Assembly (NCBI GenBank): GCA_964443365.1
Contig: CAYUCM010000002.1
Coordinates: forward strand, 1-33,265
Origin: an uncultured Candidatus Saccharibacteria bacterium
Lineage (GTDB): Bacteria; Patescibacteriota; Minisyncoccia; Phycocordibacterales; CAIZLB01
Direction: 5' to 3'
DNA: 33,265 nt
Numbering within the stretch: position 1 is the stretch's first letter; the number at the start of each line of letters is the position of its first letter. This document shows, one piece after another, positions 2,429 through 33,040 of the stretch. Both the position numbers and the translations under genes were made by a program. Under the pieces are notes generated by a model, which made no database searches, was not told where the DNA came from, and was given only the letters and a program-made list of their open reading frames with translations.

Positions 2429-3622
2429 TTAGGCTACGATCTTTGTTACAACTCCGGCACCAACAGTTCTTCCACCTTCACGAATAGCTAGTCTTTGCTT
2501 TTCTTCAAGAGCAATAGGAGCTACAAGCTTAACTTTGAAAGTAACTGTGTCACCAGGCATAACCATGTCTACGCCTTCCTTTAGAGTAACCTCTCCTGTT
2601 ACGTCAGTTGTACGTACGTAGAACTGTGGTTTGTAACCTGAGAAGAATGGAGTGTGTCGACCGCCTTCTTCCTTCTTAAGGATATACACTTCAGCCTCAA
2701 ATTCTGTATGAGGAGTAATTGATCCTGGCTTTGAGATAACTTGTCCTCTCATAAGATCATCTTTCTTTACAGATCTTAGAAGAATACCAGCGTTGTCTCC
2801 TGCCATACCTTCTGTTAGTTGCTTATTGAACATTTCAATTCCTGTAACAACAGTCTTTTGAGTGTCCTTAAGACCAACGATTTCAATTTCCTCACCAATC
2901 TTAACTACACCCTTTTCAATCTTTCCTGTAACTACTGTTCCTCTTCCTTCAATTGAGAAGATATCTTCAATAGGCATCAAGAATGGCTTTTCAACCTCTC
3001 TTACAGGTTGTGGAATGTAAGTATCTAGAGCGTCTGCAAGTTCTAGGATTTTCTTTGACCACTCATCATTGTTATCTGCAGATTCAAGAGCCTTAAGAGC
3101 TGAACCTCTAATAACTGGAGCGTTTTCGTCAAATCCATTCTTTGCTAGAAGCTCTCTGATTTCTGCTTCAACAAGGTCTAGCATATCTGCATCCTCAACC
3201 ATATCACACTTGTTCATGAATACGATTATCTTTGGAACACCAACTTGCTTTGCAAGAAGAACGTGCTCACGTGTTTGTGGCATTGGTCCGTCTGTTGCAG
3301 CAACTACTAGGATAGCGCCGTCCATTTGAGCAGCACCAGTAATCATGTTTTTAATGTAATCAGCGTGACCTGGAGCGTCAATGTGTGCATAGTGACGAGC
3401 GTTTGTAGCATACTCACTGTGTGAAAGTGAAATTGTAATACCACGAGCCTTTTCTTCAGGTGCCTTGTCAATTTCTCCAACACCCTTAACTGTAGCTTGC
3501 ATACCTCCTCTATGTAGAACATTAAGGATTGCAGCTGTTAAAGTTGTCTTTCCGTGGTCAACGTGACCAATTGTTCCCACGTTTACGTGTGGTTTTGAAC
3601 GATCGAAATTTCCGGTTGCCAT
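2429..3622 (-). CDS. tuf: Elongation factor Tu
   Basis: 397 aa with [18 protein letters not shown] and NKCD G-motifs. Full length. Confidence 0.98.
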
Positions 3623-3876
3623 AATATTTGTTGATAATTATAGAATTGCGTGTTGTAGTTTATGGATATCGCCATAAAACACCCAATTTTTCTAATTAAT
3701 AAAATTAATTTTAATAAATTTCTCAAATTTCGTCTCTAGTGCTTCCCTTTGTATATAGCTTTATTATGTTTTTATCCTTAATATTGGCCTTAAATCAAAA
3801 GGAAGGTGCGAGAAGAAAACCGCCAAAAGGCGTTAACTGGATAATATCAGAAGGTGGGGGTTTGTCAATAAGAATT

Positions 3877-3904
3877 CAACCTCCAGCTGGGTAGCTGGAG
3901 GTTG
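3877..3904 (-). terminator. Perfect 12-bp stem / 4-nt loop hairpin directly after the 97-aa ORF
   Basis: caacctccagct-gggt-agctggaggttg, checked base by base. On the minus strand it is followed by aattcttattg. It lies 34 nt downstream of the TAG at 3938-3940. Confidence 0.55.
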
Positions 3905-3937
3905 TGAATTGTGGGATCGTGGATGTAATGGGCCATA

Positions 3938-4231
3938 CTAATCCCAGTGGTCAGATCCTCCGATTCCATTCTTGGCCAAGAGAACCTTCTTGACCATATA
4001 CAGAATCGCAACGATGGTGACGGCGCAGCCCATAGCCCCCAGAAAAAACCAAAGGGGTGTCTTGTTGGAAAAACCTTCCGTCTTCTCGTAAAACGAGCCC
4101 CACAACCTCCAACAAGAAGCTGCGATGACCGCCATGCCGTAGACCGCAAGACTCACCAGGAGGCACCAAGGTGACGAGCAAAGATTGTCTTTTCCCACGG
4201 GTTTGTTGAACCACTTTCTGAATGTTTTCAT
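3938..4231 (-). CDS. Small (97 aa) two-TM membrane protein of unknown function, encoded in a G+C-rich foreign cassette
   Basis: ATG at 4231 and TAG at 3940-3938. The N-terminus is basic (MKTFRKWFNKPVGK). There are two ~20-residue hydrophobic segments (WCLLVSLAVYGMAVIAASCW and LWFFLGAMGCAVTIVAILYMV), and the C-tail is basic then acidic. It is the only one of the four overlapping open frames that reads like a protein. Third codon positions are G/C-rich, unlike every neighbour. Confidence 0.55.
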   Translation of the reverse strand: MKTFRKWFNKPVGKDNLCSSPWCLLVSLAVYGMAVIAASCWRLWGSFYEKTEGFSNKTPLWFFLGAMGCAVTIVAILYMVKKVLLAKNGIGGSDHWD

Positions 4232-4309
4232 TGTAAAAATGAGGCCTTTCTGTCCTCAGGTTTATTGATTGATGTCCCGACACCTTTTTGTGACGGGAGA
4301 TCTGTCAAT

Positions 4310-4337
4310 ACTTTAATCTTTTTTATTCAGGTGTCAA
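4310..4337 (-). promoter_or_regulatory. Candidate sigma70-type promoter for the 97-aa gene
   Basis: The minus strand reads TTGACA (4337-4332), a 16-nt spacer, then TAAAGT (4315-4310). This is about 80 nt upstream of the ATG at 4231. Confidence 0.4.
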
Positions 4338-4363
4338 CAAAATATGGCACGACGCAAACAAAA

Positions 4364-4383
4364 ACACCCCACTTATGGAGTGT
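4364..4383 (-). terminator. Intrinsic terminator-like hairpin (second of two downstream of the fusA fragment)
   Basis: The minus strand reads ACACTCCA-TAAG-TGGGGTGT followed by TTTTTGTTTG. This is an 8-bp stem including one G-U pair. Confidence 0.5.
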
Positions 4384-4450
4384 TTTTGTTTTGATATTAT
4401 CTTTAAGCTATCATCTATTTGATTATAACAAATTTACTAACTATACAAAA

Positions 4451-4470
4451 ACACCCCATTTCTGGGATGT
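4451..4470 (-). terminator. Intrinsic terminator-like hairpin downstream of the fusA fragment
   Basis: The minus strand reads ACATCCCA-GAAA-TGGGGTGT followed by TTTTTGTATAG. It lies 36 nt after the stop codon of repeat copy A. Confidence 0.55.
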
Positions 4471-4505
4471 CTTTGCCAAAACTTTTTTGTTTTGCCTTGC
4501 TTGTA

Positions 4506-4706
4506 TTATTTCCTACTCTCCACAATTGTCTTCTCCACATTAGCTGGAACTGTATCGTAGTGATCAAATTCCATACTAACTGAACCTCTTCCTTGTGTCA
4601 TTGATCTGATGTCTGTTGTGTAACCAAACATTTCAGACAATGGAACCATGGCTCTAATAACTTTGATTCCACCTGCTCTATCGTCCATTCCTTCAATTTG
4701 TCCTCT
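4506..4706 (-). pseudogene. fusA: Orphan duplicate of the last 66 codons plus stop of fusA (EF-G domain V C-terminus)
   Basis: 100% identical over 201 nt to 8505-8705. It retains an in-frame ATG (4688) that gives the 60-aa peptide [10 protein letters not shown]...TIVESRK, identical to the EF-G C-terminus. No upstream fusA sequence is present. Confidence 0.85.
4506..4706. repeat. Direct repeat copy A (201 bp, perfect)
   Basis: Hand alignment with 8505-8705 shows every position identical. The flanking bases differ on both sides (4505 vs 8504, 4707 vs 8706). Confidence 0.97.
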
Positions 4707-4730
4707 TGATATTTTTTTATACGATAAACA

Positions 4731-7700
4731 TTATTCATCAATCTCATCTATTTCCTTAGGTTGACTGGGGTTATAATTCTCAGCTCTTTCCCAATCAATT
4801 GGAATGACACCTCCTACTTCACCAGTTTCTTCATTAAATTCAATTATCGTATCTTTTATCCTCCATCTTTTATCAATACCAAGTGTTGTCCTGAATAATT
4901 TAGCCATTTCCCCATTCTTTTCAGCAACTACCATCAGAATTACTTTGATTTGTTCTTCACTAAATTTACCCAAATCTTTTAAGTATTTATCAAAATTTCT
5001 TCCAGAAACTCCTTCTATTTTTTTCATAAGCAAATAACTACCATCTAGTTCCTCCTTACCAGAGACAAACCCCACAGGTTCTGCTGTTGGTAATCCAGCC
5101 TTTTTGGCAGAAATAAGAATAGAAAACTCTTTTCGGGCTTCTTTTGATTTTCTAAGTTCAATCTTTTTTGCTACAATTTCTGTTCCATCTGTCATTTTAA
5201 ACAAAATAATTTCTTCATCAGGAAATTCTCCCGTACCCTTACTGCCTTTTAATAATTCTCCATATGTATTCAAAAAACTCCTTGGATCATTAATAAATTC
5301 TTGTGGTAATTTCCTTGCATATTCTTGTCGTATACGAATAGTATAATGCTCAGAATCTAAATTCATATTACCAGAAGGTTCATGATGCAACTTCTCCTTT
5401 AGCCAATAATGACGCGCAATCGCCTGCTTAATCATCATGTATTCAAATTGCTCCAAAGGAGAAGTCGGCTCAGCGATAGGGCGGATTTTTCCGGTTTCGG
5501 GATCTTTTATTAATCCCACAGCGGTATTATCTAATTTAGCATTATGCTCAATATATTCAACAATTTCTGATCTGGCATTTTTTGGTATTCCCTTAATGCG
5601 ACGACCTGTGGTCTTAGCCGACAGTAAACGAATTCTTTTTTCAATATCATCACTATCAAAATCCATTATTTTCATTATCTGTTCGGGAATTGTGCCGGTA
5701 TAGCCAGTATCATAAAATAAAGGGTCCATATCCGGAGTAATTCTTTCTTGTGCCAAAAATGCACGCTTAGTTTTATAATCTAAGTTATCGCGAAAATATC
5801 TTGGGTAAACCGTATATTGCGGATTAATTTCAACAACCTCCCCCATTTCTCTAAGTTTTTTTCTTCCTTCAAGTCCCATTTTTCTACGACGAGCAACATC
5901 TTGTGCTCGTCTACCAATATATGCATAAATACCGTCTCTACCTAAATAAACTTCCAGTGGATTTCTGCCTGTCTCTCTTAAATTATCAAATTCTTCGTAA
6001 AGTTTATCATATAAAGGAATATCAACTTCGTAAGCTTTTATATATTTTTCGAATCCATAATGAAGAAGAGATTGTATGTCCTGCAACAAAACTTCACCTC
6101 TAGGGTAGTTGCCAGACCAATCTTTGTCATTTTCGTCAGTAACCACCTCTTCCTGCCTGTTCTTATTTCCAAGTTCATAGTTTAATTTATCTATATCTCC
6201 TTCATGTCTTTGTACTAAATAACGCGCAACCAAAGAACGAATGCTATCAATCAATGGGGTCATTTTAACCAAACCTGATTTTGGATTTAATAATACACTT
6301 TTATCTTCTTCATTAATTTTTGAATTTAGCTGAATATCCTTAAGAAAACCTTCGTAACATCCTTCTGTGATCCTTTTTACTTCCTCTAGAAACGGAAATA
6401 TCTCCTGGCTATTTATTCCCAAATTTTCCAGCTCTTTATCTTCTGGTTTTCCGCTCATTAATTCCGAAATCGCCAACGCTGTTTTAATTTGTTTATCTCC
6501 AAAACGCCAAGGGTGATCTTCAAATTGGTCAAAGTCTCTCAGTCCTTCATTATGATATCCCCCTTCATATCCATCATCATTATTATCTTCATACTGTGGT
6601 GTAGCTGAAATTTTTGCCTTTACAAGAGCCTGTTCCACCCACGTCAGACCCTTCCATTTATCTTTGATTTTCTTCGTTGTCCAGCCATCATCTTCTTCCA
6701 CTTCAAGAATAAACTTTTTAGCTACTGAATAATGCGATATTGCCTTGTTAATATTTTCCGCTACCCATGGTTGTTGATAATATTTATCAAGATTTTCAAC
6801 AAAATAATCTGCCAAGTTTTGATCTTTTTCTAAATTATCAAAAATCATATTCCTAGCTTTATCAAAAACCAAAGGAAGTATTTTTTGTTTTTCTTCATCT
6901 CCAAGATATGGAATAAATCTTATCAGACTAGATTCGGTAATCTTGTTTACTTGCTCTCTATCAAAAGCTTGTACCAAATCTTCAGCCCCATCTATAAGGT
7001 TTTTAATTTTACCAATTATTTCAAAGTTTTTATTATTATATAAAGACTTAATCTCTGCTTTTAAAAGTTTATATGTAAAATCACGCAACTCTTTATTGGG
7101 TTCTATTATTTCGATCCCCTCCTTCATGTAACCCAATTCTTCATTAAGGTCCTCTTCTATAACACTCATTTCACCTTCTGAAACCCCTTTTATGTTAGGT
7201 AAATTATATTCTTTTTTTGTAATTTTTTTAATTTCTTTCGGAACCAATAAACCATCAAAAAAATGTTGTGTAAGATCTACACTATTAGGGTTGAGCGACC
7301 AGTCTGACAAAATTTGCTTAAGCCATTCTTGTTTAGATTCCATGGATTTAAACATGTCTATACCTTTTTTGGTTAAATCAAATTCTTCTTCTGAAAAATT
7401 ACTATCAATATTCCCCATGAGTAATCCCGGAGTTATACCTTTTTGCATAAACTTTTGCGCTTTGACGATAAATAACCTTTGATCTTCAATCGTCATTTTA
7501 TTAAATTCTCCAACAAAAAAATCCCAAGTCGTGCTTTTATCATATTTGATTGACTTTACCACTATAGAAAGTCCATCATTCAATCCTACCAAACTACCCT
7601 TAGATAATTCTTTCCATTTATTAAAAACATCATCAGGCTCATAAATTTTTTTGCCCTTATCGTCTTTTTTATCGGAGATTTTAATCTTTCCAAAAATATT

Positions 7701-8342
7701 ATCTAGCAGTTTGCAAAATGATTTTTCACCATACAGTGGCATAAACTCTGCTAATTTACCAAGCAATTCAAAAGTTGTTTCATCATAGTTTAAACCATTG
7801 TGAGCCCTAAACCATAAATCCATAAGAATATCCTTGGGGTTATCACCATTTTCTCCTTGAACTGCATTATTCTTTAGTATATTGATAAGTGAATCCATCG
7901 AGTTTTTCTCATTAGATCCCGTTCGAGATAAAGAATACAATGAATCAATAATCTGTTTAATTAAAGAATAGCTTAAATAACCATTAGGCTCTTTTGAAAC
8001 TTTTGCAACATCAATAATATTTTGAGCATATTTACGGAAATCTTTTGGACTATTTATATTAAAATACCAAAATCTTTTTTCAATCTCCTCAAAAATAATC
8101 TTCATTACCTGGGAATTATCCGAGTCAAAACCTTCTCCAAGTTGTTCACGAACTTGGTCACACATAGCAGATATTTCCTCTCTAATTTTATCTTTGTCCA
8201 AGCTGTTCAACTTTTTAATCAAACCTCCATCTTCCTTAAGGTCATTTGGAACTCCTAATTCAGACAACTCAATTGGACTAATTTCTTTTTGTTTTCCTAC
8301 TAGACCATCTTTTTCAATTTCTAATTCAAATCTTTGTTTCAT
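4731..8342 (-). CDS. 1203-aa orphan protein: long Lys/Glu/Asp-rich N-terminal region, Arg-rich central module, C-terminal protein-kinase-like domain
   Basis: Uninterrupted 3,612-nt ORF with an ATG start, a TAA stop and host-like AT-rich composition. Only short, clearly spurious antisense ORFs overlap it. The C-terminal ~170 aa carry kinase-fold motifs in the correct order: GSKGTGEF, IVAKKI, KEARKEF, LLMKKIEG, RIKDTIIEFN, IDWE. I recognise no NTPase, nuclease or recombinase motif. Confidence 0.85.
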   Translation of the reverse strand: MKQRFELEIEKDGLVGKQKEISPIELSELGVPNDLKEDGGLIKKLNSLDKDKIREEISAMCDQVREQLGEGFDSDNSQVMKIIFEEIEKRFWYFNINSPKDFRKYAQNIIDVAKVSKEPNGYLSYSLIKQIIDSLYSLSRTGSNEKNSMDSLINILKNNAVQGENGDNPKDILMDLWFRAHNGLNYDETTFELLGKLAEFMPLYGEKSFCKLLDNIFGKIKISDKKDDKGKKIYEPDDVFNKWKELSKGSLVGLNDGLSIVVKSIKYDKSTTWDFFVGEFNKMTIEDQRLFIVKAQKFMQKGITPGLLMGNIDSNFSEEEFDLTKKGIDMFKSMESKQEWLKQILSDWSLNPNSVDLTQHFFDGLLVPKEIKKITKKEYNLPNIKGVSEGEMSVIEEDLNEELGYMKEGIEIIEPNKELRDFTYKLLKAEIKSLYNNKNFEIIGKIKNLIDGAEDLVQAFDREQVNKITESSLIRFIPYLGDEEKQKILPLVFDKARNMIFDNLEKDQNLADYFVENLDKYYQQPWVAENINKAISHYSVAKKFILEVEEDDGWTTKKIKDKWKGLTWVEQALVKAKISATPQYEDNNDDGYEGGYHNEGLRDFDQFEDHPWRFGDKQIKTALAISELMSGKPEDKELENLGINSQEIFPFLEEVKRITEGCYEGFLKDIQLNSKINEEDKSVLLNPKSGLVKMTPLIDSIRSLVARYLVQRHEGDIDKLNYELGNKNRQEEVVTDENDKDWSGNYPRGEVLLQDIQSLLHYGFEKYIKAYEVDIPLYDKLYEEFDNLRETGRNPLEVYLGRDGIYAYIGRRAQDVARRRKMGLEGRKKLREMGEVVEINPQYTVYPRYFRDNLDYKTKRAFLAQERITPDMDPLFYDTGYTGTIPEQIMKIMDFDSDDIEKRIRLLSAKTTGRRIKGIPKNARSEIVEYIEHNAKLDNTAVGLIKDPETGKIRPIAEPTSPLEQFEYMMIKQAIARHYWLKEKLHHEPSGNMNLDSEHYTIRIRQEYARKLPQEFINDPRSFLNTYGELLKGSKGTGEFPDEEIILFKMTDGTEIVAKKIELRKSKEARKEFSILISAKKAGLPTAEPVGFVSGKEELDGSYLLMKKIEGVSGRNFDKYLKDLGKFSEEQIKVILMVVAEKNGEMAKLFRTTLGIDKRWRIKDTIIEFNEETGEVGGVIPIDWERAENYNPSQPKEIDEIDE

Positions 8343-8368
8343 AAATTTTATTTTACAAATATTATTTT

Positions 8369-8377
8369 ATTATAGCA
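8369..8377 (-). promoter_or_regulatory. Extended -10 element (TGCTATAAT) upstream of the 1203-aa ORF
   Basis: The minus strand reads TGcTATAAT, 26 nt upstream of the ATG at 8342 and downstream of the fusA terminator. The -35 is weak (GGTACA). Confidence 0.4.
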
Positions 8378-8407
8378 CACAACGCTAGGTTGTACCCTAA
8401 TTTACAT

Positions 8408-8443
8408 AAAAAACACAAAAACACCCCTCTCGGGGTGCTTTTG
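8408..8443 (-). terminator. Rho-independent terminator of fusA
   Basis: The minus strand reads CACCCC-GAGA-GGGGTG followed by TTTTTGTGTTTTTT. It lies 68 nt after the fusA stop. Confidence 0.75.
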
Positions 8444-8504
8444 TCAGAATGTATTGCACGTTTTTAGAGAAGTGTCTTGAATACGGCTCTGTTGCTATCT
8501 TTAT

Positions 8505-8705
8505 TTATTTCCTACTCTCCACAATTGTCTTCTCCACATTAGCTGGAACTGTATCGTAGTGATCAAATTCCATACTAACTGAACCTCTTCCTTGTGTCAT
8601 TGATCTGATGTCTGTTGTGTAACCAAACATTTCAGACAATGGAACCATGGCTCTAATAACTTTGATTCCACCTGCTCTATCGTCCATTCCTTCAATTTGT
8701 CCTCT
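8505..8705. repeat. Direct repeat copy B (201 bp, perfect), which is the genuine 3' end of fusA
   Basis: Identical to 4506-4706. It begins exactly at the fusA stop codon. Confidence 0.97.
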
Positions 8706-10658
8706 CTTTGACGAAAGTGAACCTGTAACGTCACCCATGAATTGTTCTGGTGTTAACGCTTCAACTTTCATAATAGGCTCAAGAATAACAGGTCTAGCTT
8801 TTCTAGCTGCCTCTTGAAACGCTTGAGAAGCTGCAATTTTGTAAGCAATTTCTGATGAGTCCACATCGTGATATGATCCAAAAGTAAGTTCACAAGATAC
8901 ATTTGTTAGAGGGAAACCAGCAACAATACCTCTTTCCATTGCTTCCTTAACTCCCTTTTCAACTGCTGGGATAAATTCTGCTGGGATAACTCCTCCTTTA
9001 ATAGAATCGATAAATTCAAATCCTTCAGTTCTATGAACGTTCTTAGGAATTTTAGCACCCTCTTCTAGTGGTTCTAGATGCTTAATATTAATCTTAACGT
9101 GACCATATTGTCCCTTACCTCCAGATTGCTTAACATATTTATGCTCTGCTTCTGAAGACCCAAGAATGGTTTCTCTGTATGCGACTTGAGGAGCTCCAAC
9201 ATTAGCCTCGACACTAAACTCTCTTTTCATTCTATCAACCATAATTTCAAGGTGAAGTTCACCCATACCTGAAATAACAGTATCTCCAGTTTCTTGATTT
9301 GAAGAAATTCTAAATGTTGGGTCTTCATCACTCAATTTTTTAAGAGCAACACCCATCTTTTCTTGATCAGCCTTTGTCTTTGGCTCAATTCTTAGAGACA
9401 CAACAGGCTCTGCGAATTTAATAGGATCAAGAATGATTGGATGAGTTTCATCACAGAAAGTATGTGAAGTCTTTGCCTCCTTAAGACCAACAGCGGCAGC
9501 AATTTCTCCAGCATAAACTTTCTTAACTTCTTCACGCTTATTAGCTTGAAGTCTAACAATACGTCCAAGTCTTTCTTTATTTCCTGTTGACGAGTTATAA
9601 ATATATGAACCCGCTTCAATTGTTCCTGAATAAACACGGAAGAAAGTAAGTTGTCCTACGAATGGGTCAGTTTGCAATTTGAATGCAAGAGCTGAAAATG
9701 GTTCTTCATCTGAAGCATGTCTTTCAATTTCTGCTCCTGTTTCTGGATCAATTCCCTTCATTGGAGGAACATCAAGAGGACATGGTAGATAATCAACAAC
9801 AGCATCCAATACTAATTGAACACCCTTGTTCTTTAGAGCTGAACCTGTGAACACTGGGAAAACTTTGTTTGCAATAACTCCCTTTCTTAGAGACGCTTTA
9901 AGCTCGTCAATTGTAAATTCTGCAGACTCGCCATTTTCCAAATATCTGTTCATTAATTCTTCATCAAACTCTACACACTTTTCAACAAGCTCTTGTCTTC
10001 TTAATTTTGCTTCATCAAGCATGTCAGCTGGAATTTCATATTCAACAACTGTACTTCCCATATCTCCTTCAAATTTATAAGCTTTCATCTTTAAAAGATC
10101 TACCATTCCTTCCAAATCTGATTCAAGACCAATTGGAAGTTGCATTCTTATTGCATTCTTATTTAGTCTATCCAAAATTGATTGATATGATCTTTCAAAT
10201 GATGCTCCCATTCTATCCAATTTGTTAATGAAACAAATACGAGGAACATGATATTTATCAGCCTGTCTCCAAACTGTTTCAGATTGAGCCTCAACTCCGG
10301 CAACACCATCAAATACTACAACTCCACCGTCCAAAACTTTAAGAGATCTTTCAACCTCAACTGTAAAGTCTACGTGACCTGGTGTGTCGATAATATTAAA
10401 TCTTTGCATTTGTGACTTATCTGTACCCATGTATGTTGGATTCCAGAAACAAGTAATAGCAGCTGCGGTAATTGTAATACCACGCTCTTTTTCTTGTTCC
10501 ATCCAGTCAGTTACAGCCTCACCTTCATGAACCTCACCAATTTTGTGACTCATTCCTGTGTAATAAAGAACGCGTTCTGATGTTGTTGTTTTTCCCGCAT
10601 CAATGTGAGCGATGATACCAAAGTTACGAACTCGCTCTAATGGATAATCACGATTCAT
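8505..10658 (-). CDS. fusA: Elongation factor G
   Basis: 717 aa with [17 protein letters not shown] and NKLDR G-motifs. Full-length domains I-V. Confidence 0.98.
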
Positions 10659-11994: not shown

Positions 11995-13107
11995 TTATTC
12001 CACAACCGTCACCGCCTTACCGTTTACAACTCTTTTGATTACATATGGTTTTGTAAAAGCTCTTAGTCCATCAGACTTCAAATGACCTGACATTCCATCA
12101 TATTCTTTAATTGAAGCCATATAATCCTTAACTTTATCGGGATCAGTACTTTTTGTGGCATTCATTGCTTGCGCGATCATCATTACAGCATCGTAGGCGG
12201 AGTCGGCGCCTATTTGTATTTCTCTATTGTAAGCAACCTTATAGCGTTGTTCAAATTCTTTAGTTGGAGTTAGTGAAACTGGAAAGGTTAAACCTTCACA
12301 AGAACCCTTACAGTTAGCAATTAGCGTATTGTCTATATTTTCAGAAAATACCGGTAAATCAATATTTATATCGTCGATTTGATTCATTATTACATCAAAC
12401 AAGCTATAACCAGCAACTGTCACTATTACAGCATCGATTGACTGATCTTGTTTAATTTTCATAGCCCCTGTTCTGATATCCTTTTCTTCGACATTGGGCT
12501 CGTATATAAATGAAACCTTACCACCAAGCTGAGTAAATCTATCCTTAAAGTTCTTGGTCTGATCCTGAACCCATACATCATTAGCTCCGATTATTGCCAC
12601 ATTTCTATGTCCTTTTTTGTAAACGATATCAGCCAGATCTCTTGAGAGTAGAAAGTCATGTTGATAAACGTTGAAAATGTATGGATTAGCCTCATTAAAC
12701 TCCTTAACGCCAAGAGAAGGTGAGACCAAAACCACCTTCTTTTGTTGTGCCAAATCAGTCAGCGCTAAACCTTGATTAGACCAGTTTGTACCTATAATGA
12801 AATTTACTTTATGATAATCAGTTAATTTATTAAAGGCACTTATTGTAGAAATTGGACTTATTTCCGTATCTTCATATTTTGCAACAACCTTTTTACCCAT
12901 AATGCCGCCATCATCGTTAATATCCTTTATGGCCAATTCCATACCGTTTTTTGAAGATTCCCCCCAAGAAGCAGCGTCACCACTTAGTATCAAAGCGCCT
13001 CCGATTACTATCTCATCAGTGTTTTGAACATCAGATGTTTTGTCGTTAAACACCACAACAAGACAAACGACTATGAATATCGAAATAATTGCTATATATT
13101 TTTTCAT
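11995..13107 (-). CDS. Periplasmic-binding-protein type 1 (LivK/branched-chain amino acid-like) solute-binding protein with an N-terminal membrane anchor
   Basis: 370 aa. There is an N-terminal hydrophobic helix, then IVIGGALILSGDAASWGESSKNGMELAIKDINDDGGIMGKKV, which is typical of Leu/Ile/Val-binding-type SBPs. No permease or ATPase gene is adjacent. Confidence 0.75.
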   Translation of the reverse strand: MKKYIAIISIFIVVCLVVVFNDKTSDVQNTDEIVIGGALILSGDAASWGESSKNGMELAIKDINDDGGIMGKKVVAKYEDTEISPISTISAFNKLTDYHKVNFIIGTNWSNQGLALTDLAQQKKVVLVSPSLGVKEFNEANPYIFNVYQHDFLLSRDLADIVYKKGHRNVAIIGANDVWVQDQTKNFKDRFTQLGGKVSFIYEPNVEEKDIRTGAMKIKQDQSIDAVIVTVAGYSLFDVIMNQIDDINIDLPVFSENIDNTLIANCKGSCEGLTFPVSLTPTKEFEQRYKVAYNREIQIGADSAYDAVMMIAQAMNATKSTDPDKVKDYMASIKEYDGMSGHLKSDGLRAFTKPYVIKRVVNGKAVTVVE

Positions 13108-13243
13108 GGCTTTATTTAATGTTAAATTATTAATAAGTATTGACGTATTAATAGTATATGTTATGTTATTTTAGTCAAAACACCATGCACATTCTATGCT
13201 TATTTATGTACAAATTAGCAATATATATAGCCATATATATGTG

Positions 13244-13272
13244 TTGACACGCTACCAACAACAAAGTACAAT
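13244..13272 (+). promoter_or_regulatory. Promoter in leaderless geometry for the TrmB-like gene
   Basis: TTGACA (13244-13249), 17 nt, TACAAT (13267-13272), 6 nt, then the ATG at 13279. There is no Shine-Dalgarno sequence. Confidence 0.55.
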
Positions 13273-13278
13273 ACAAGT

Positions 13279-14043
13279 ATGATTTTAAGTATTTTAAAAG
13301 ATCTTGGGTTTTCAGAAAAAGAAGCAACAATATATCAAACCATATATGAACAGGGACACATAAATCCCTCTCAAATATCAGTGTCTACAGGTATCAACAG
13401 ATCTACCGTATATAGTGTACTCAAAGATCTGACAGACAAAGGGGTTGTGAGTGAAGACCACACAAAAAAACAAACCATGTTTATTGCCCTACCATTAAAC
13501 AGTTTGGAGAATATGATTAATCGAGAAGAGCGACTACTTCAAGAAAAACGACTACTTGTTGAACAGGCCGTAAAAGAACTTATTAAATTAGACCGGAAAA
13601 CTTCTATATCCGAACCGAAGATGACTTTCGTATTTGAAGAAAATTTTAATGATTTTTTATACCAACAAACACCAGAATGGAATAAAAGCACCATGAGACG
13701 AGGTGGTATATGGTGGGGATTTCAAAGTCCAAGCTTTGCCAAAACTTATCAAAAGTGGATAGATTGGTTCTGGAAAGAATCCGCGGATGAGAGATTAATA
13801 CTAAAAATACTCACAAATGAATCCATTATAGAAAATGAAATGGAAAAAAGAGGTTATAACAGAAGACTTATTAGATATTGGAACGGTGGATCCAATTTTA
13901 CCGCCTCTACTTGGATAAGCGGTGATTATATAATTATGGCTATGACAGATCAAAAGCCACACTATCTCGTACAAATACACGATGAGGTCTTGGCTCATAA
14001 CATGAGAGAAATGTTTAAGGGATTATGGGAGATAAATAACTAA
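13279..14043 (+). CDS. TrmB-like winged-helix transcriptional regulator
   Basis: The N-terminus LGFSEKEATIYQTIYEQGHINPSQISVSTGINRSTVYSVLKDLTDKGVVSE matches the TrmB-type wHTH pattern. The C-terminal ~170 aa are unassigned. Confidence 0.65.
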   Translation: MILSILKDLGFSEKEATIYQTIYEQGHINPSQISVSTGINRSTVYSVLKDLTDKGVVSEDHTKKQTMFIALPLNSLENMINREERLLQEKRLLVEQAVKELIKLDRKTSISEPKMTFVFEENFNDFLYQQTPEWNKSTMRRGGIWWGFQSPSFAKTYQKWIDWFWKESADERLILKILTNESIIENEMEKRGYNRRLIRYWNGGSNFTASTWISGDYIIMAMTDQKPHYLVQIHDEVLAHNMREMFKGLWEINN

Positions 14044-14937: not shown

Positions 14938-15927
14938 TCAATCCGCATTTGAGCTGATGACATCACCAAAATACACCGTGCCCTCTGTGGTGCGGTGTAT
15001 TTTGGTTTTAGGAAAAACCTCTTGAAACATTTCTTCAATCTCTTTGCTTGGATGTTTGTATCTATTATTTTTTCCATAAGAAAATATTACATCTGTAGGA
15101 TTTATTTTTTTAACGAACTCCTCCGCCGATGAAGTCTTAGATCCATGATGCCCCGCCTTTAATATATTTTGACGAATACTCATGTCATTGAAAATTGTTT
15201 TTACAAACCCATTCTCAATCATGTTGTCTACCAGAACTTTTTCTATCTTAATGGGTGCATCTGCCATTAATAGAAAATTCTTATCAAATGTTTTAAAAGA
15301 AGAAACCGCAGAGAAAAAATTATTATCCTCTATTTCTTTTTTGCTAAACAAGGGTGCATCAAAAACATTTTCAGAAAGCATGCCGGGTGATAAAAAATCC
15401 AAACTTTCATTTTCAGAAAATTGTAAATTAACCCCAGCAAAAACAGGAAGTGTTTTGTTAAAGTTTTGTAAAGTTAAAAGCCCGTCCTCTCGCAAAAAAT
15501 AAATTGGCGAATGTAACACCAACCCAATATTAAAATGCTTTACCAAACTTACAACATCGCCATCATGATCAGCGTCTGGATGTGTGAGTATCAAGATATC
15601 AATTCTTTTTATATCATCACTCAAAATCTTTTTAAGCTCTGGAATTAATTTTCCAAGAGGAGAACCTGTATCAATTAGAATAATCTGTTTCTGTTTTGTA
15701 ATTATTAAAATAGAATCCCCTTGTCCAACATTTAAAAAGTAGACGCCAGTTTTAATTTCAAGCCCAGCCCCAAATTGAGAAATTGCAATATTGATGCTAC
15801 TTATGAAAATCGCCAATAAAAATATGCCAGCAAAAAATAATACCTTCCCATGATATAATAGACGAACACCGAACATATACAAGGTGTCCAAAATTTTCAA
15901 AATTATCATTATTATTTTATCAATCAT
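14938..15927 (-). CDS. comEC: ComEC C-terminal module as a separate gene: TM anchor plus metallo-beta-lactamase domain
   Basis: VYFLNVGQGDSILI...ILIDTGS, ILILTHPDADHDGD (HxHxDH-type motif with the second His replaced by Asp) and LKAGHHGSKTSS are ComEC/Rec2 MBL-domain signatures. There is an N-terminal hydrophobic helix. Confidence 0.8.
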   Translation of the reverse strand: MIDKIIMIILKILDTLYMFGVRLLYHGKVLFFAGIFLLAIFISSINIAISQFGAGLEIKTGVYFLNVGQGDSILIITKQKQIILIDTGSPLGKLIPELKKILSDDIKRIDILILTHPDADHDGDVVSLVKHFNIGLVLHSPIYFLREDGLLTLQNFNKTLPVFAGVNLQFSENESLDFLSPGMLSENVFDAPLFSKKEIEDNNFFSAVSSFKTFDKNFLLMADAPIKIEKVLVDNMIENGFVKTIFNDMSIRQNILKAGHHGSKTSSAEEFVKKINPTDVIFSYGKNNRYKHPSKEIEEMFQEVFPKTKIHRTTEGTVYFGDVISSNAD

Positions 15928-16680: not shown

Positions 16681-18138
16681 TTAATCAGATGAATAATCTA
16701 TAAACTTTTTATAAAGAAAAACCGAAATTGGAATAGCTATTATATACCAGGCTATTACAAAGTAATCGGAAACCTTACCCAGCTCCAATAAAGCATTTTC
16801 TGAATCGGAAATATAACGAACTACAGCCATAAAGTATGCCAAAACAAAATGTGAAACAACACCGAATAACATAGCAACATCAACACTAATGAAACACAAA
16901 ACACTGGCACAAAACACCAGGAGCATTGCCAAGGGAATAAAAGGCACAACCGCTAGATTAGAAAAAATTCCGTATACAGAAAGTGCTCCTGAAAATTTTA
17001 ACAAAAGCGGCATGGAGAAAATTTGAGTTGCAAAGAATGAAGAAACCGTTTCTCTTAATCCAAAACTTTTAGGTAAAAAACGGAACACCCATCCGCTTGA
17101 ATTTCCCAAAAGGACAAGTCCGAGAGTGCAAGCAAAAGACAATTGAAAAGATGGGTCACCAATTAAAATTAATGGATTGAAAATTATCATGAGTAAACCA
17201 GCTATCAAGGTTGCCATAAGCGCACTGTGTCCTATATTAAAAATTCTTGAATAAATTCCGATCAAAGACATGAGAAGAGATCTTATAACAGTTGCCCCAC
17301 CGCCGACCATAATGCAAAACAAAATGATGCCAATAGTTCCAAAAACTCCAGATAAAAGTTTTGGTAAAAAAGAAAAAAATGAAATTATTACCTGAGACAC
17401 AATAGATACATTAAATCCAGAAAGTACCACCATGTGAATTAATCCAGCGCGTTTAAAATGTTCCAAAGACTCTTTGGACATTTCTCCCTTGCCGGTTATT
17501 AAAATTCCAGAACCTAGAGCAAATTCATCTTTATCAGGAAGAACTCGTCTAATATTTTCTACCATCAAATTTCTAAAATTAAAAAGCCCCCTCTTTAGTT
17601 TGTATTCATAACTCATTGAAGTTTTTTTGTACGAAGAAAAACCACCATCCTCCCACGGGATAATTTTTGCATTCTTCATTTCAAACTGAATTCCTCTTGC
17701 AAGTAAAAATAGATTGGAATCAAAATCTTCTGTAATTTCAGGTAAGGAAAGTTTGCCATGAAATTTTATTTTACCTCCAAGGGCGCACCCATCATGAGTG
17801 GAGAGCTCATCACAACTCATAACAATTCTGATTTTATTTTTTCTGAACTCTTTTCTAAAAAAATTAACTGGATTTAAAATACAATTAATTCCACATCGTG
17901 AACTTACGGGTATTTCATTTTTACCAATTTGTATTTTTTCTATGGTAATCACCACTTTTTTTCTAAATCCAAAATCAGTGGGTTCATCACTTATAATACC
18001 CAAAAGCACCACCTCCCTATTTAACTTTTCTAATAAAATTTGTGACCTTGAAGAGACAACCTGATATCTAAAATAAATTAAAAATACAACAAACAAAAAC
18101 ACCAACACAAAAATCAAGATTTTTATTTTTTTATTCAC
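16681..18138 (-). CDS. comEC: ComEC N-terminal module: N-terminal TM plus OB-like region and polytopic competence (DNA channel) domain
   Basis: 485 aa. AGLIHMVVLSGFNVSIV matches the ComEC competence-domain HLLAISGLH-type motif. There are many TM helices. The start is GTG, with no nearby ATG. Confidence 0.8.
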   Translation of the reverse strand: MNKKIKILIFVLVFLFVVFLIYFRYQVVSSRSQILLEKLNREVVLLGIISDEPTDFGFRKKVVITIEKIQIGKNEIPVSSRCGINCILNPVNFFRKEFRKNKIRIVMSCDELSTHDGCALGGKIKFHGKLSLPEITEDFDSNLFLLARGIQFEMKNAKIIPWEDGGFSSYKKTSMSYEYKLKRGLFNFRNLMVENIRRVLPDKDEFALGSGILITGKGEMSKESLEHFKRAGLIHMVVLSGFNVSIVSQVIISFFSFLPKLLSGVFGTIGIILFCIMVGGGATVIRSLLMSLIGIYSRIFNIGHSALMATLIAGLLMIIFNPLILIGDPSFQLSFACTLGLVLLGNSSGWVFRFLPKSFGLRETVSSFFATQIFSMPLLLKFSGALSVYGIFSNLAVVPFIPLAMLLVFCASVLCFISVDVAMLFGVVSHFVLAYFMAVVRYISDSENALLELGKVSDYFVIAWYIIAIPISVFLYKKFIDYSSD

Positions 18139-32089: not shown

Positions 32090-33040
32090 ATGAACCCCAT
32101 ACAGGAAAAACTCCATATTATAAAGGCTAAATCAAGATTAAGCCAAGAAGATCTTGCAAGAGAGCTGGGTGTAACCCTCTCTGCTTTTAATGCTTGGTGG
32201 AATGGTAAATCAACCCCCAGAAATGGCGCCCTGCTTAAAATAGAGGATCTGTATGCTAAATATACAGGTTCTGGTAAGCCCAAAACATCAGAAATAGACA
32301 TTATTCTATCTCAAATAGATGATGCATATAGAAATTATGACAATATTCTTTCTCATATTTTAAACAGGCGAGATGTTTTGGAGAATTTGATTGTAAAACT
32401 CACCTATCACTCAGACGCAATTGAAGGTAGTACACTTACACAAGCGGAGACTAAGGCTATCATTTATGACAATAGCACCATTAAAAATAAGACTCTTATA
32501 GAGCAAATGGAGGCCAGAAATCACAAATCAGCCTTAATGTATTTATTCTCACATCTAGAATCAGGGGGTAAAATTAATGAAGAATTACTTAAAAAACTTC
32601 ATTCAATACTATTAAATGGAATTATGGATAATGCTGGGCAATATAGAAATCATCAAGTCAGAATAGCAGGAACAAACGTTGTAACAGCAAATTATATGAG
32701 TATTCCCAATCTGGTCAATAAATTGTTTTTAAACAGTGCGGCCCTCAAGGTAAACCCAGAAAGGAGTCCTGGCGAGGCCGAGAACATAATAGCCTTTGTT
32801 ACAAAATTTCACGCCAATTTTGAAAAAATCCACCCATTTTCAGACGGAAATGGTAGAGTTGGGAGGCTTTTAATTACAGCATTTCTGTTAAAAAACAATG
32901 TTGCACCAGCTATTATTGAAAAAGATTTAAAGCATTTGTATTACACATATCTAGAAAACGCCCAAGAGCATGAAAACTATGCTTTTTTAGAGCTTTTTAT
33001 TGCTGAGGCGATAATGAAGGGATATAAGGAGGTGAAATAG
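32090..33040 (+). CDS. Fic-domain protein with an N-terminal XRE-type HTH
   Basis: HPFSDGNGRVGRLL matches the canonical HxFx(D/E)GNGRxxR. The N-terminus LSQEDLARELGVTLSAFNAWWNGKSTP is an HTH. SDAIEG matches the [ST]xxxE[GN] inhibitory motif. Confidence 0.9.
   Translation: MNPIQEKLHIIKAKSRLSQEDLARELGVTLSAFNAWWNGKSTPRNGALLKIEDLYAKYTGSGKPKTSEIDIILSQIDDAYRNYDNILSHILNRRDVLENLIVKLTYHSDAIEGSTLTQAETKAIIYDNSTIKNKTLIEQMEARNHKSALMYLFSHLESGGKINEELLKKLHSILLNGIMDNAGQYRNHQVRIAGTNVVTANYMSIPNLVNKLFLNSAALKVNPERSPGEAENIIAFVTKFHANFEKIHPFSDGNGRVGRLLITAFLLKNNVAPAIIEKDLKHLYYTYLENAQEHENYAFLELFIAEAIMKGYKEVK

Follow-up and report, generated by a model that had tools for sequence, protein, structure and literature searches.

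In a 33,265-nt stretch of DNA from an uncultured Candidatus Saccharibacteria bacterium (assembly GCA_964443365.1, contig CAYUCM010000002.1; hereafter the window), the last 201 bp of fusA, the gene for elongation factor G (EF-G), occur twice in direct orientation, once as the end of the intact gene and once as an orphan fragment, and the two copies bracket a unit whose sole gene encodes a protein of 1,203 aa (ORF1203). We give roughly even weight to the reading that host recombination inserted an accessory cassette of one gene at the fusA 3′ end and duplicated that end in the process. The scar itself is of a known kind, a target-end duplication bracketing an insertion; its unusual features are the protein-coding target, the absence of any detected recombinase domain, the length of the perfect repeat and the phylum in which it occurs. 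The locus is made up of the following parts:

8505..10658, minus strand: fusA (EF-G, 717 aa), intact; an open reading frame (ORF) with the Pfam domains GTP_EFTU, EF-G_D2, EFG_III, EFG_IV and EFG_C
8505..8705, minus strand: copy B of the direct repeat, the last 66 codons of fusA plus the stop codon, 100% identical to 4506-4706
4731..8342, minus strand: ORF1203, the cargo gene, 1,203 aa, from the ORF list
4707..4730, minus strand: linker of 24 nt from the ORF1203 stop codon to the orphan, ending at the novel (illegitimate) joint 4706/4707, read from the sequence
4506..4706, minus strand: copy A of the direct repeat, the orphan fusA 3′ fragment, codons 652-717 plus the stop codon, from the repeat search
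2429..3622, minus strand: tuf (EF-Tu), the far boundary of the variable fusA-tuf spacer, from the ORF and Pfam

A repeat search across the window returned a single long direct repeat, 4506-4706 and 8505-8705, identical at all 201 nt and with a start-to-start spacing of 3,999; a perfect repeat of this length cannot be due to chance. An earlier note on this DNA had described the same identity, had assigned one copy to the last 66 codons and stop codon of intact fusA and the other to an orphan, and had placed the limits of identity at the stop codon and inside the coding sequence. The repeat search, the ORFs and the EF-G domains agree with all of this, and identity is lost from the base that follows the stop codon at one limit and within codon 651/652 at the other. 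At the joint 4706/4707, the 3′ flank of ORF1203 meets fusA codon 652. Read along the minus strand, the gene order is a periplasmic-binding protein, rpsL, rpsG, fusA, ORF1203, the orphan fusA fragment, a small GC-rich ORF (3938..4231), tuf, rpsJ, rplC, rplD and rplW. Searches with blastn-short and tblastn found no further fusA relics in the fusA-tuf spacer, no credible Rfam family was found in 3400-8800, and no tRNA gene was found in the window.

Both copies of the repeat are native to the lineage. The fusA product shares 83% amino acid identity with that of a Patescibacteria metagenome-assembled genome, and its approximately 40 best matches are nearly all from Patescibacteria. At the nucleotide level, the fusA 3′ end is only 65% identical to that of the closest available relative; it is thus not ultra-conserved, so the 100% identity of the repeat reflects an origin within the same lineage. 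We also considered a mosaic fusA with a donor-derived 3′ end. This was ruled out, because relatives were ranked identically by aa 652-717 and by the rest of the protein, and this lack of a mosaic signal in the C-terminal 66 aa indicates that both copies are native.

The stop codon of ORF1203 (4731-4733) is in frame with the orphan EF-G fragment, with eight sense codons between them, and the period of 3,999 is divisible by 3 because the ORF1203 stop codon and the orphan share one frame. Read-through of ORF1203 would add 66 aa of EF-G domain V, and an internal ATG could yield a 59-aa peptide. The shared frame is probably a coincidence.

Past the stop codons, the DNA downstream of the two copies consists of related terminator-promoter modules, followed by a third terminator closer to tuf:

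8415..8444, minus strand: T1, the intrinsic terminator after fusA, a 13-pair stem with a T tract
8369..8377, minus strand: extended -10 element TGcTATAAT, the putative ORF1203 promoter, 26 nt upstream of the ATG at 8342, read from the sequence
4445..4475, minus strand: T2, a terminator after the orphan, related to T1 by repeat family, motif and alignment
4422..4430, minus strand: a relic extended -10 element TGtTATAAT after T2, homologous to the ORF1203 promoter box by sequence and alignment
4358..4388, minus strand: T3, a third related terminator, by repeat family, motif and alignment

The terminator at 8415-8444, the extended -10 element at 8369-8377 and ORF1203 form the complete expression unit that the earlier note had recognized in the bracketed DNA. 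The note had also called the flanks of the repeat unrelated, and for the downstream flanks this does not hold. A global alignment of 8343-8504 with 4389-4505 scored 65, as against 35 ± 5.7 for shuffled sequences (maximum 53.5), and the two flanks share a terminator hairpin, a GTAAATT motif and a TGnTATAAT box at approximately 70% identity with indels. The duplicated module is therefore about 285-340 nt long and has two tiers, a coding part at 100% identity and a part past the stop codon at approximately 70% with indels. The relatedness of the flanks points to repeated accretion instead of a single clean event.

Within the window, the sequence GGGGTGTTTTTG is confined to T1, T2 and T3, all of them in the fusA-tuf spacer; 0.21 matches in the window would be expected by chance. 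T3 sits 87 nt past T2, and the relic -10 box at 4422-4430 faces T3 only. When T3 and its 5′ flank were aligned with the fusA stop codon and terminator of a relative (L014), the score was 47, as against 19 ± 2.5 for shuffles (maximum 33); judging from this resemblance, T3 probably predates the other fusA terminators. Overall, the spacer has the look of stacked modules, of which the newest, with the perfect repeat, adjoins intact fusA.

We further searched for genes and sequences that could have mobilized the unit. Among window ORFs of at least 80 aa, whether in the unit or near it, none carried a Pfam domain of a recombinase or transposase, in line with the earlier note, which had remarked on the lack of a recombinase ORF. 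The bracketed unit contained no remnants of mobile-element genes, and the repeat search found no inverted repeats at its ends. Insertion of a transposon or insertion sequence with target-site duplication was rejected, because terminal inverted repeats and a transposase domain were lacking and the duplication measures 201 bp; target-site duplications of such elements are typically 2-15 bp. An integron gene cassette was likewise rejected. No IntI was found among the window ORFs with Pfam, and T1-T3 are terminator hairpins of about 30 nt, with GC-rich stems and T tracts, in which the attC core sequences RYYYAAC/GTTRRRY were not seen by eye.

To place the locus in context, we compared fusA-tuf spacers across relatives, a check that the earlier note had proposed. 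Among matches outside Patescibacteria in which tuf follows fusA, the spacer was 18-178 bp long, with one exception of approximately 1.1 kb. In Patescibacteria relatives, by contrast, it ranged from 0.09 to 6 kb, or no tuf was present within 10 kb. The ORFs in these spacers were diverse accessory genes, including six peptidoglycan-binding secreted proteins, pilin-like proteins, a HepT toxin and a holin. This hypervariability suggests that the fusA-tuf spacer is a hot spot of insertion or accretion in this Patescibacteria lineage. Spacers between conserved core genes that hold varied accessory genes are familiar as chromosomal integration hot spots, and the fusA-tuf spacer resembles them in carrying different accessory genes in each relative between conserved, highly expressed genes; it differs from the usual core-gene hot spots in that one boundary bears a duplicated gene end and in that the tight fusA-tuf pair of the str operon is split. 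In the two closest relatives (L001 and L002), an rpsT-like ORF, recognized by eye from its MPITKSAKKA... start, lies approximately 25 nt past fusA (at ~12,170) and tuf is not within 10 kb, so that the str operon is broken exactly after fusA in this lineage.

Independently of the window, one relative carries a second orphan fusA fragment. In locus L009 (JAGWWK010000002), the order is fusA, a gene for an 827-aa secreted protein, an orphan fusA 3′ fragment, a gene for a 450-aa paralog of the 827-aa protein, and tuf, and both paralogous secreted proteins have a peptidoglycan-binding domain and Cys-rich repeats. The orphan (12037-12137 versus 15260-15360) matches its source over 101 bp at 98%, with identity dropping toward the stop codon; because this repeat is imperfect, it is not an assembly artefact. 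The breakpoint in fusA lies 201 nt from the gene end in the window and approximately 113 nt from it in L009, these being two cases only. The L009 case argues for a recurrent homology-driven process over a strictly site-specific one. Another duplication in the same hot spot is seen just downstream of fusA in locus L020, where paralogous 217-aa secreted proteins give rise to a 660-bp direct repeat at 94% (12849-13508 and 16752-17408).

These observations bear on an explanation in which the unit was integrated site-specifically by a recombinase acting in trans, or is a decayed island resembling a cis-mobilizable element (CIME), so that the two fusA 3′ copies would be attL and attR and the integrase would reside elsewhere or have been lost. 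We regard this as unlikely. Integrative islands are classically recognized by just such a pair, an intact target and a directly oriented, displaced 3′ fragment (PMC4383910). Elements that lack an integrase and are bounded by attachment (att) sites have been described, as has tandem accretion next to a target gene's end (PMC5704250). The T1/T2/T3 series is accretion-like, with its newest unit beside the intact gene, and some relatives of ORF1203 adjoin tRNA genes or an element with a serine recombinase, as described below. The absence of a recombinase domain from the window ORFs of at least 80 aa and of mobile-element remnants from the unit speaks against it. So do the 57 ORFs that lie downstream of fusA in relatives, for which the 25 Pfam families shown include no integrase; apart from one weak TrwB-like match, these families include no relaxase either. 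Site-specific integration also fits poorly with fusA breakpoints that differ between the window and L009, and with a perfect block of 201 bp, which is far longer than the usual att cores.

Like tDNA-type integrative islands with the Islander signature, the fusA locus has an intact target and a direct-orientation orphan 3′ end that bracket the insert, with the newest unit beside the intact gene and older remnants farther out. However, tDNA-type islands target tRNA or tmRNA genes, whereas the target here is protein-coding; moreover, the fusA unit has no integrase in or near it, a 201-bp perfect block, a single-gene cargo and a breakpoint that is not conserved in L009. CIMEs are att-bounded remnants left by integrative and conjugative elements (ICEs) or integrative and mobilizable elements (IMEs) without integration or transfer genes (PMC5704250). 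The fusA unit resembles them in being recombinase-less, in lying between direct repeats at a housekeeping gene's 3′ end and in its accretion-like architecture. Unlike a CIME, it contains no ICE or IME remnants, no cognate fusA-specific element was found in 80 related loci, and its repeats are candidate att sites only. We know of no ICE with fusA specificity in this phylum.

Under the preferred reading of duplicative insertion through host recombination, the cassette would consist of terminator T1, the extended -10 promoter and ORF1203, and the 201-bp repeat would be the fusA segment common to the resident chromosome and the incoming DNA. One homologous exchange in or upstream of this segment, together with one illegitimate joint at 4706/4707, would be needed to produce the observed structure, with the host recombination machinery acting and no recombinase encoded by the element. 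Two routes may be envisaged. A circularized fragment carrying a fusA patch could have integrated in the Campbell manner, or DNA from a sibling strain bearing a different spacer allele could have entered through homology-facilitated illegitimate recombination or unequal exchange. The earlier note had favored a Campbell-type single crossover of a circular DNA; the structure does match a single homologous exchange with a fusA patch, circular or linear, and the part of the claim that implies a single event is weakened by the related flanks, which suggest repeated accretion.

The two routes can be compared with their models. In a Campbell-type product, the homology patch is directly duplicated around all of the inserted DNA, as at the fusA locus, where the patch is native. 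Homology-facilitated illegitimate recombination usually deletes recipient DNA and does not duplicate it, whereas the fusA locus shows a duplication. The likeness to that process lies in the duplicated homology patch, in the combination of one homologous with one illegitimate joint and in the lack of an element-encoded recombinase; the difference is that the process has been defined in the laboratory, whereas the route at fusA would have to be reconstructed from a single natural product, though in a host with DNA-uptake genes. The illegitimate joint in such a product would carry short microhomology to the donor; at fusA the candidate is the novel joint 4706/4707. Homology-facilitated illegitimate recombination has been reported with linear DNA (de Vries & Wackernagel 2002, as cited in PMC8116780).

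The incoming DNA would probably have entered through ComEC and the type IV pilus. ComEC, RecJ, PilB, PilC and pilins are all encoded in the window, which bears out the uptake genes listed in the earlier note. Competence itself has been demonstrated only in other members of the Patescibacteria, namely Saccharibacteria in which natural transformation depends on comEC and the DNA is integrated by homology (PMC10633639). The route through uptake and homologous recombination that the note had proposed is a plausible one. Recombination between the 201-bp copies would delete the cassette or free a 3,999-bp circle while leaving fusA intact, from which we infer that the locus should be polymorphic in the population.

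The contrast between 100% identity in the coding part and approximately 70% beyond it argues against a simple tandem duplication followed by divergence. It fits an exchange between alleles of the same species that share fusA and carry old, diverged spacer haplotypes, or else gene conversion limited to the coding sequence. Identity would then stop at the stop codon because a coding sequence conserved throughout the species borders old spacer alleles. The earlier note had read the identity as a sign of a recent event or of ongoing gene conversion; conversion can be retained, and given this contrast recency becomes one option only.

Also under the preferred reading, T2 with the relic -10 element, T3 and a GC-rich module carrying a small ORF would be the remains of earlier events that were displaced downstream. 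The GC-rich module lies between T3 and tuf and comprises the following:

3840..4337, minus strand: GC-rich foreign module, GC content 0.45-0.52 versus approximately 0.35, from consensus scans and translation
4310-4337, minus strand: promoter-like site in the GC-rich module, from a consensus scan
3938..4231, minus strand: ORF97, 97 aa, with two transmembrane helices predicted by eye from the translation
3877-3904, minus strand: terminator in the GC-rich module, from a consensus scan
3841-3868, minus strand: tuf promoter-like site, from a consensus scan

The module is clearly foreign DNA. The GC content at third codon positions (GC3) of ORF97 is 0.643, compared with a host mean of 0.277 ± 0.037. 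ORF97 had no match in Pfam or NCBIfam and no phage match with tblastn, and its one PHROG match was weak (E = 0.0075).

A purely local origin was also considered, in which a block of fusA 3′ end, terminator, promoter and ORF1203 was duplicated in tandem, the second ORF1203 was then deleted and the orphan was kept identical by conversion. The module after the orphan does retain a terminator and a relic -10 element homologous to the ORF1203 promoter region. In L009, the orphan is flanked by paralogs, which fits a tandem duplication there, and its 98% core within flanks of lower identity resembles a conversion tract. For the window, however, this account requires two events plus a conversion that halts exactly at the stop codon; modules that were once identical should have been co-converted rather than stand at approximately 70% with indels beside a perfect 201 bp, and no remnant of a second ORF1203 copy was found. 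We consider it very unlikely.

A further explanation, in our view quite unlikely, is that the junctions are real and the topology is an artefact of assembly, the 3,999-bp unit being a free circle, a tandem array or a form present in a sub-population. Short-read assemblers usually work with k-mers shorter than 201 bp, so a perfect repeat of this length creates a cycle in the assembly graph, and two loci of the ORF1203 family show signs of this kind, L165 with a 127-bp repeat and a period of 4,082 and L119 with a 92-bp terminal overlap. Exact-protein look-ups for fusA and ORF1203 gave no record of a second assembly of the strain, and none of the metagenome contigs contained an exact match to a 43-mer from the repeat. 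On the other hand, the joint between the ORF1203 flank and mid-fusA cannot come from mis-joining within shared sequence, so some real molecule carries the cassette together with a fusA patch. The cassette has the composition of the host, both repeat copies are internal to the 33-kb contig with unique flanks on each side, and the orphan in L009, being imperfect at 98%, cannot be a graph artefact. The assembly graph, which leads from the fusA body into the repeat, from the repeat into the cassette and back, and from the repeat to the tuf side, fits equally well with the integrated form, with a free circle of 3,999 bp beside an empty chromosome, with a tandem array or with a mixture of these, and recombination between the repeats would interconvert them.

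Several points weigh against duplicative insertion through host recombination. To explain why identity drops from 100% to approximately 70% precisely at the stop codon, one must additionally assume either old spacer alleles within one species or conversion confined to coding sequence. The integrated topology is presumed from a single assembly. Neither recA nor dprA is present in the 33-kb window. Among 75 fusA loci tested, L009 was the only further case of an orphan fusA fragment. Finally, integrases yield the same signature, a regenerated target with a displaced fragment (PMC4383910).

We next turn to the cargo. ORF1203 has a variable N-terminal part that appears helical by eye, a Rossmann-like domain at aa ~750-990 and a protein-kinase-like domain at aa ~1000-1203. 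It had no match in Pfam, PHROGs, PADLOC or NCBIfam. A word-indexed protein search returned the query alone, both for ORF1203 and for a 39-sequence family alignment, probably because low-complexity words rich in K and E filled the candidate list. A full HMMER search, by contrast, identified a family of 214 representative sequences, mostly 1,000-1,600 aa long and with the C-terminal 450 aa in common, which rules out that ORF1203 is an ORFan.

AlphaFold (AF2) models of aa 750-1203 and aa 750-995 reached a predicted local distance difference test score (pLDDT) of 93-94. The last ~200 aa were modelled as a bilobal protein-kinase-like fold, for which Foldseek returned WaaP, YopO, RIO and CaMKII at E-values of 1e-5 to 1e-3, and some family members have weak matches to the APH, Kdo and RIO1 families of Pfam. 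From its predicted fold, the C-terminal domain would belong to the protein-kinase-like superfamily. The best Foldseek matches of the Rossmann-like domain were the Bcs3 capsule multienzyme and a polysaccharide ribofuranosyltransferase, with a query TM-score (TMq) of ~0.5. That ORF1203 might be a hidden recombinase or transposase was rejected, as it matched no such family and the C-terminal 450 aa, the part modelled, fold as a Rossmann-like and a kinase-like domain. The GC3 of ORF1203 (0.246) lies within the host range. No relatives of the family were found in IMG/VR, and in PLSDB only the fusA part was matched; on these grounds a phage or plasmid origin was rejected.

The genomic contexts of the family were examined in 86 loci. 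None of the 86 has fusA or tuf as a neighbor, which rules out a conserved synteny of the family with fusA, and family genes tend toward variable contexts. The closest homolog (L088, 69%) lies tightly between ligA-like and rodA-like genes, recognized by eye from their N-termini, with no repeats. In L081, L085 and L109, the family gene lies directly 3′ of a tRNA gene. Flanking repeats were found at 13 of the 86 loci, a count that includes redundant contigs, compared with 6 of 132 random control segments of 3.6 kb, in which the repeats were weak. Imperfect direct repeats surround family genes in L135/L137 (~250 bp), L106 (125 bp) and L109 (42 bp).

In L135, the repeated segments (2414-2663 and 8935-9101, equivalent to 4838-5087 and 11359-11525 in L137) are approximately 250 bp of non-coding, promoter-like DNA, 78-94% identical, on both sides of a 2,051-aa family gene, and this upstream sequence seems to have been copied in front of the next gene downstream as well. 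Next to a family gene in locus L110 lies a segment (2618-7968) with a tRNA-Ser(cga) gene, a gene for a 545-aa putative large serine recombinase (by eye, from its N-terminus) and unannotated genes; the segment is enclosed by a direct repeat of 182 bp (90%), which overlaps the recombinase gene at its 3′ end. A 69-aa gene of the HTH_3/XRE type stands just ahead of several family members, with a 5-nt gap (L086 154-363; L087 379-588), and in L125 the sequence of this upstream region (130-316) is repeated downstream of the family gene (4635-4821), just before the next ORF. This layout is reminiscent of the controller proteins of restriction-modification or defence modules.

Other loci were taken as leads and not as evidence. 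In L165, a perfect 127-bp repeat (4988-5114 and 9070-9196) encloses a family gene and ends exactly at the contig end, and in L119, the terminal overlap (1-92 and 10406-10497) implies a circle of 10,405 bp; these repeats could be graph cycles, tandem copies or circular molecules. In L102 and L103, the family gene is flanked by perfect inverted repeats of 250-422 bp (173-422 and 5511-5760 in L102; 1-422 and 5511-5932 in L103), the flanks contain tRNA-like 3′ ends (T-arm, acceptor and CCA, with a weak tmRNA match), and the gene itself has an internal duplication with a 780-bp period (702 bp at 99.3%). These two loci represent either an invertible segment or an assembly hairpin. A 128-bp tRNA-like direct repeat in L102 was accordingly downweighted as a clean parallel, since the gene also lies within the 250-422-bp perfect inverted repeats.

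A broader conjecture, decidedly speculative and in our judgment improbable, is that ORF1203-family genes, and perhaps other cargo, travel in competent Patescibacteria as recombinase-free "homology-patch cassettes". In each cassette, one expressed gene would be joined to a copy of a conserved host gene's 3′ end or of an adjacent terminator-promoter module. Such units may loop out by recombination between repeats, be taken up by other cells and be re-inserted by RecA wherever the patch matches, being added beside the intact gene. The imperfect direct repeats around family genes in L135/L137, L106 and L109 are in favor of this conjecture, and graph cycles or circular contigs such as those of L165 and L119 would fit it.

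At the contig end, the window also contains a gene with HTH_3 and Fic/DOC domains (32090-33040), on the strand opposite to most genes.

The genomes of Patescibacteria are tiny, and little is understood of the ways in which these bacteria acquire and reshuffle accessory genes; to our knowledge, few mobile elements have been described in the phylum. The cargo family, with its Rossmann-like and WaaP/RIO-like kinase module, is uncharacterised and frequent in variable contexts. A single locus on its own is a modest finding, and its value would rise sharply with reads of excision or circle junctions or with many such scars. If the reading is true, orphan 3′ fragments of protein-coding core genes would provide a searchable genomic signature, and a hot spot that splits the fusA-tuf pair and duplicates the fusA end, with no recombinase domain found nearby, would suggest that competence together with homologous recombination by the host is a main way in which this phylum gains genes.

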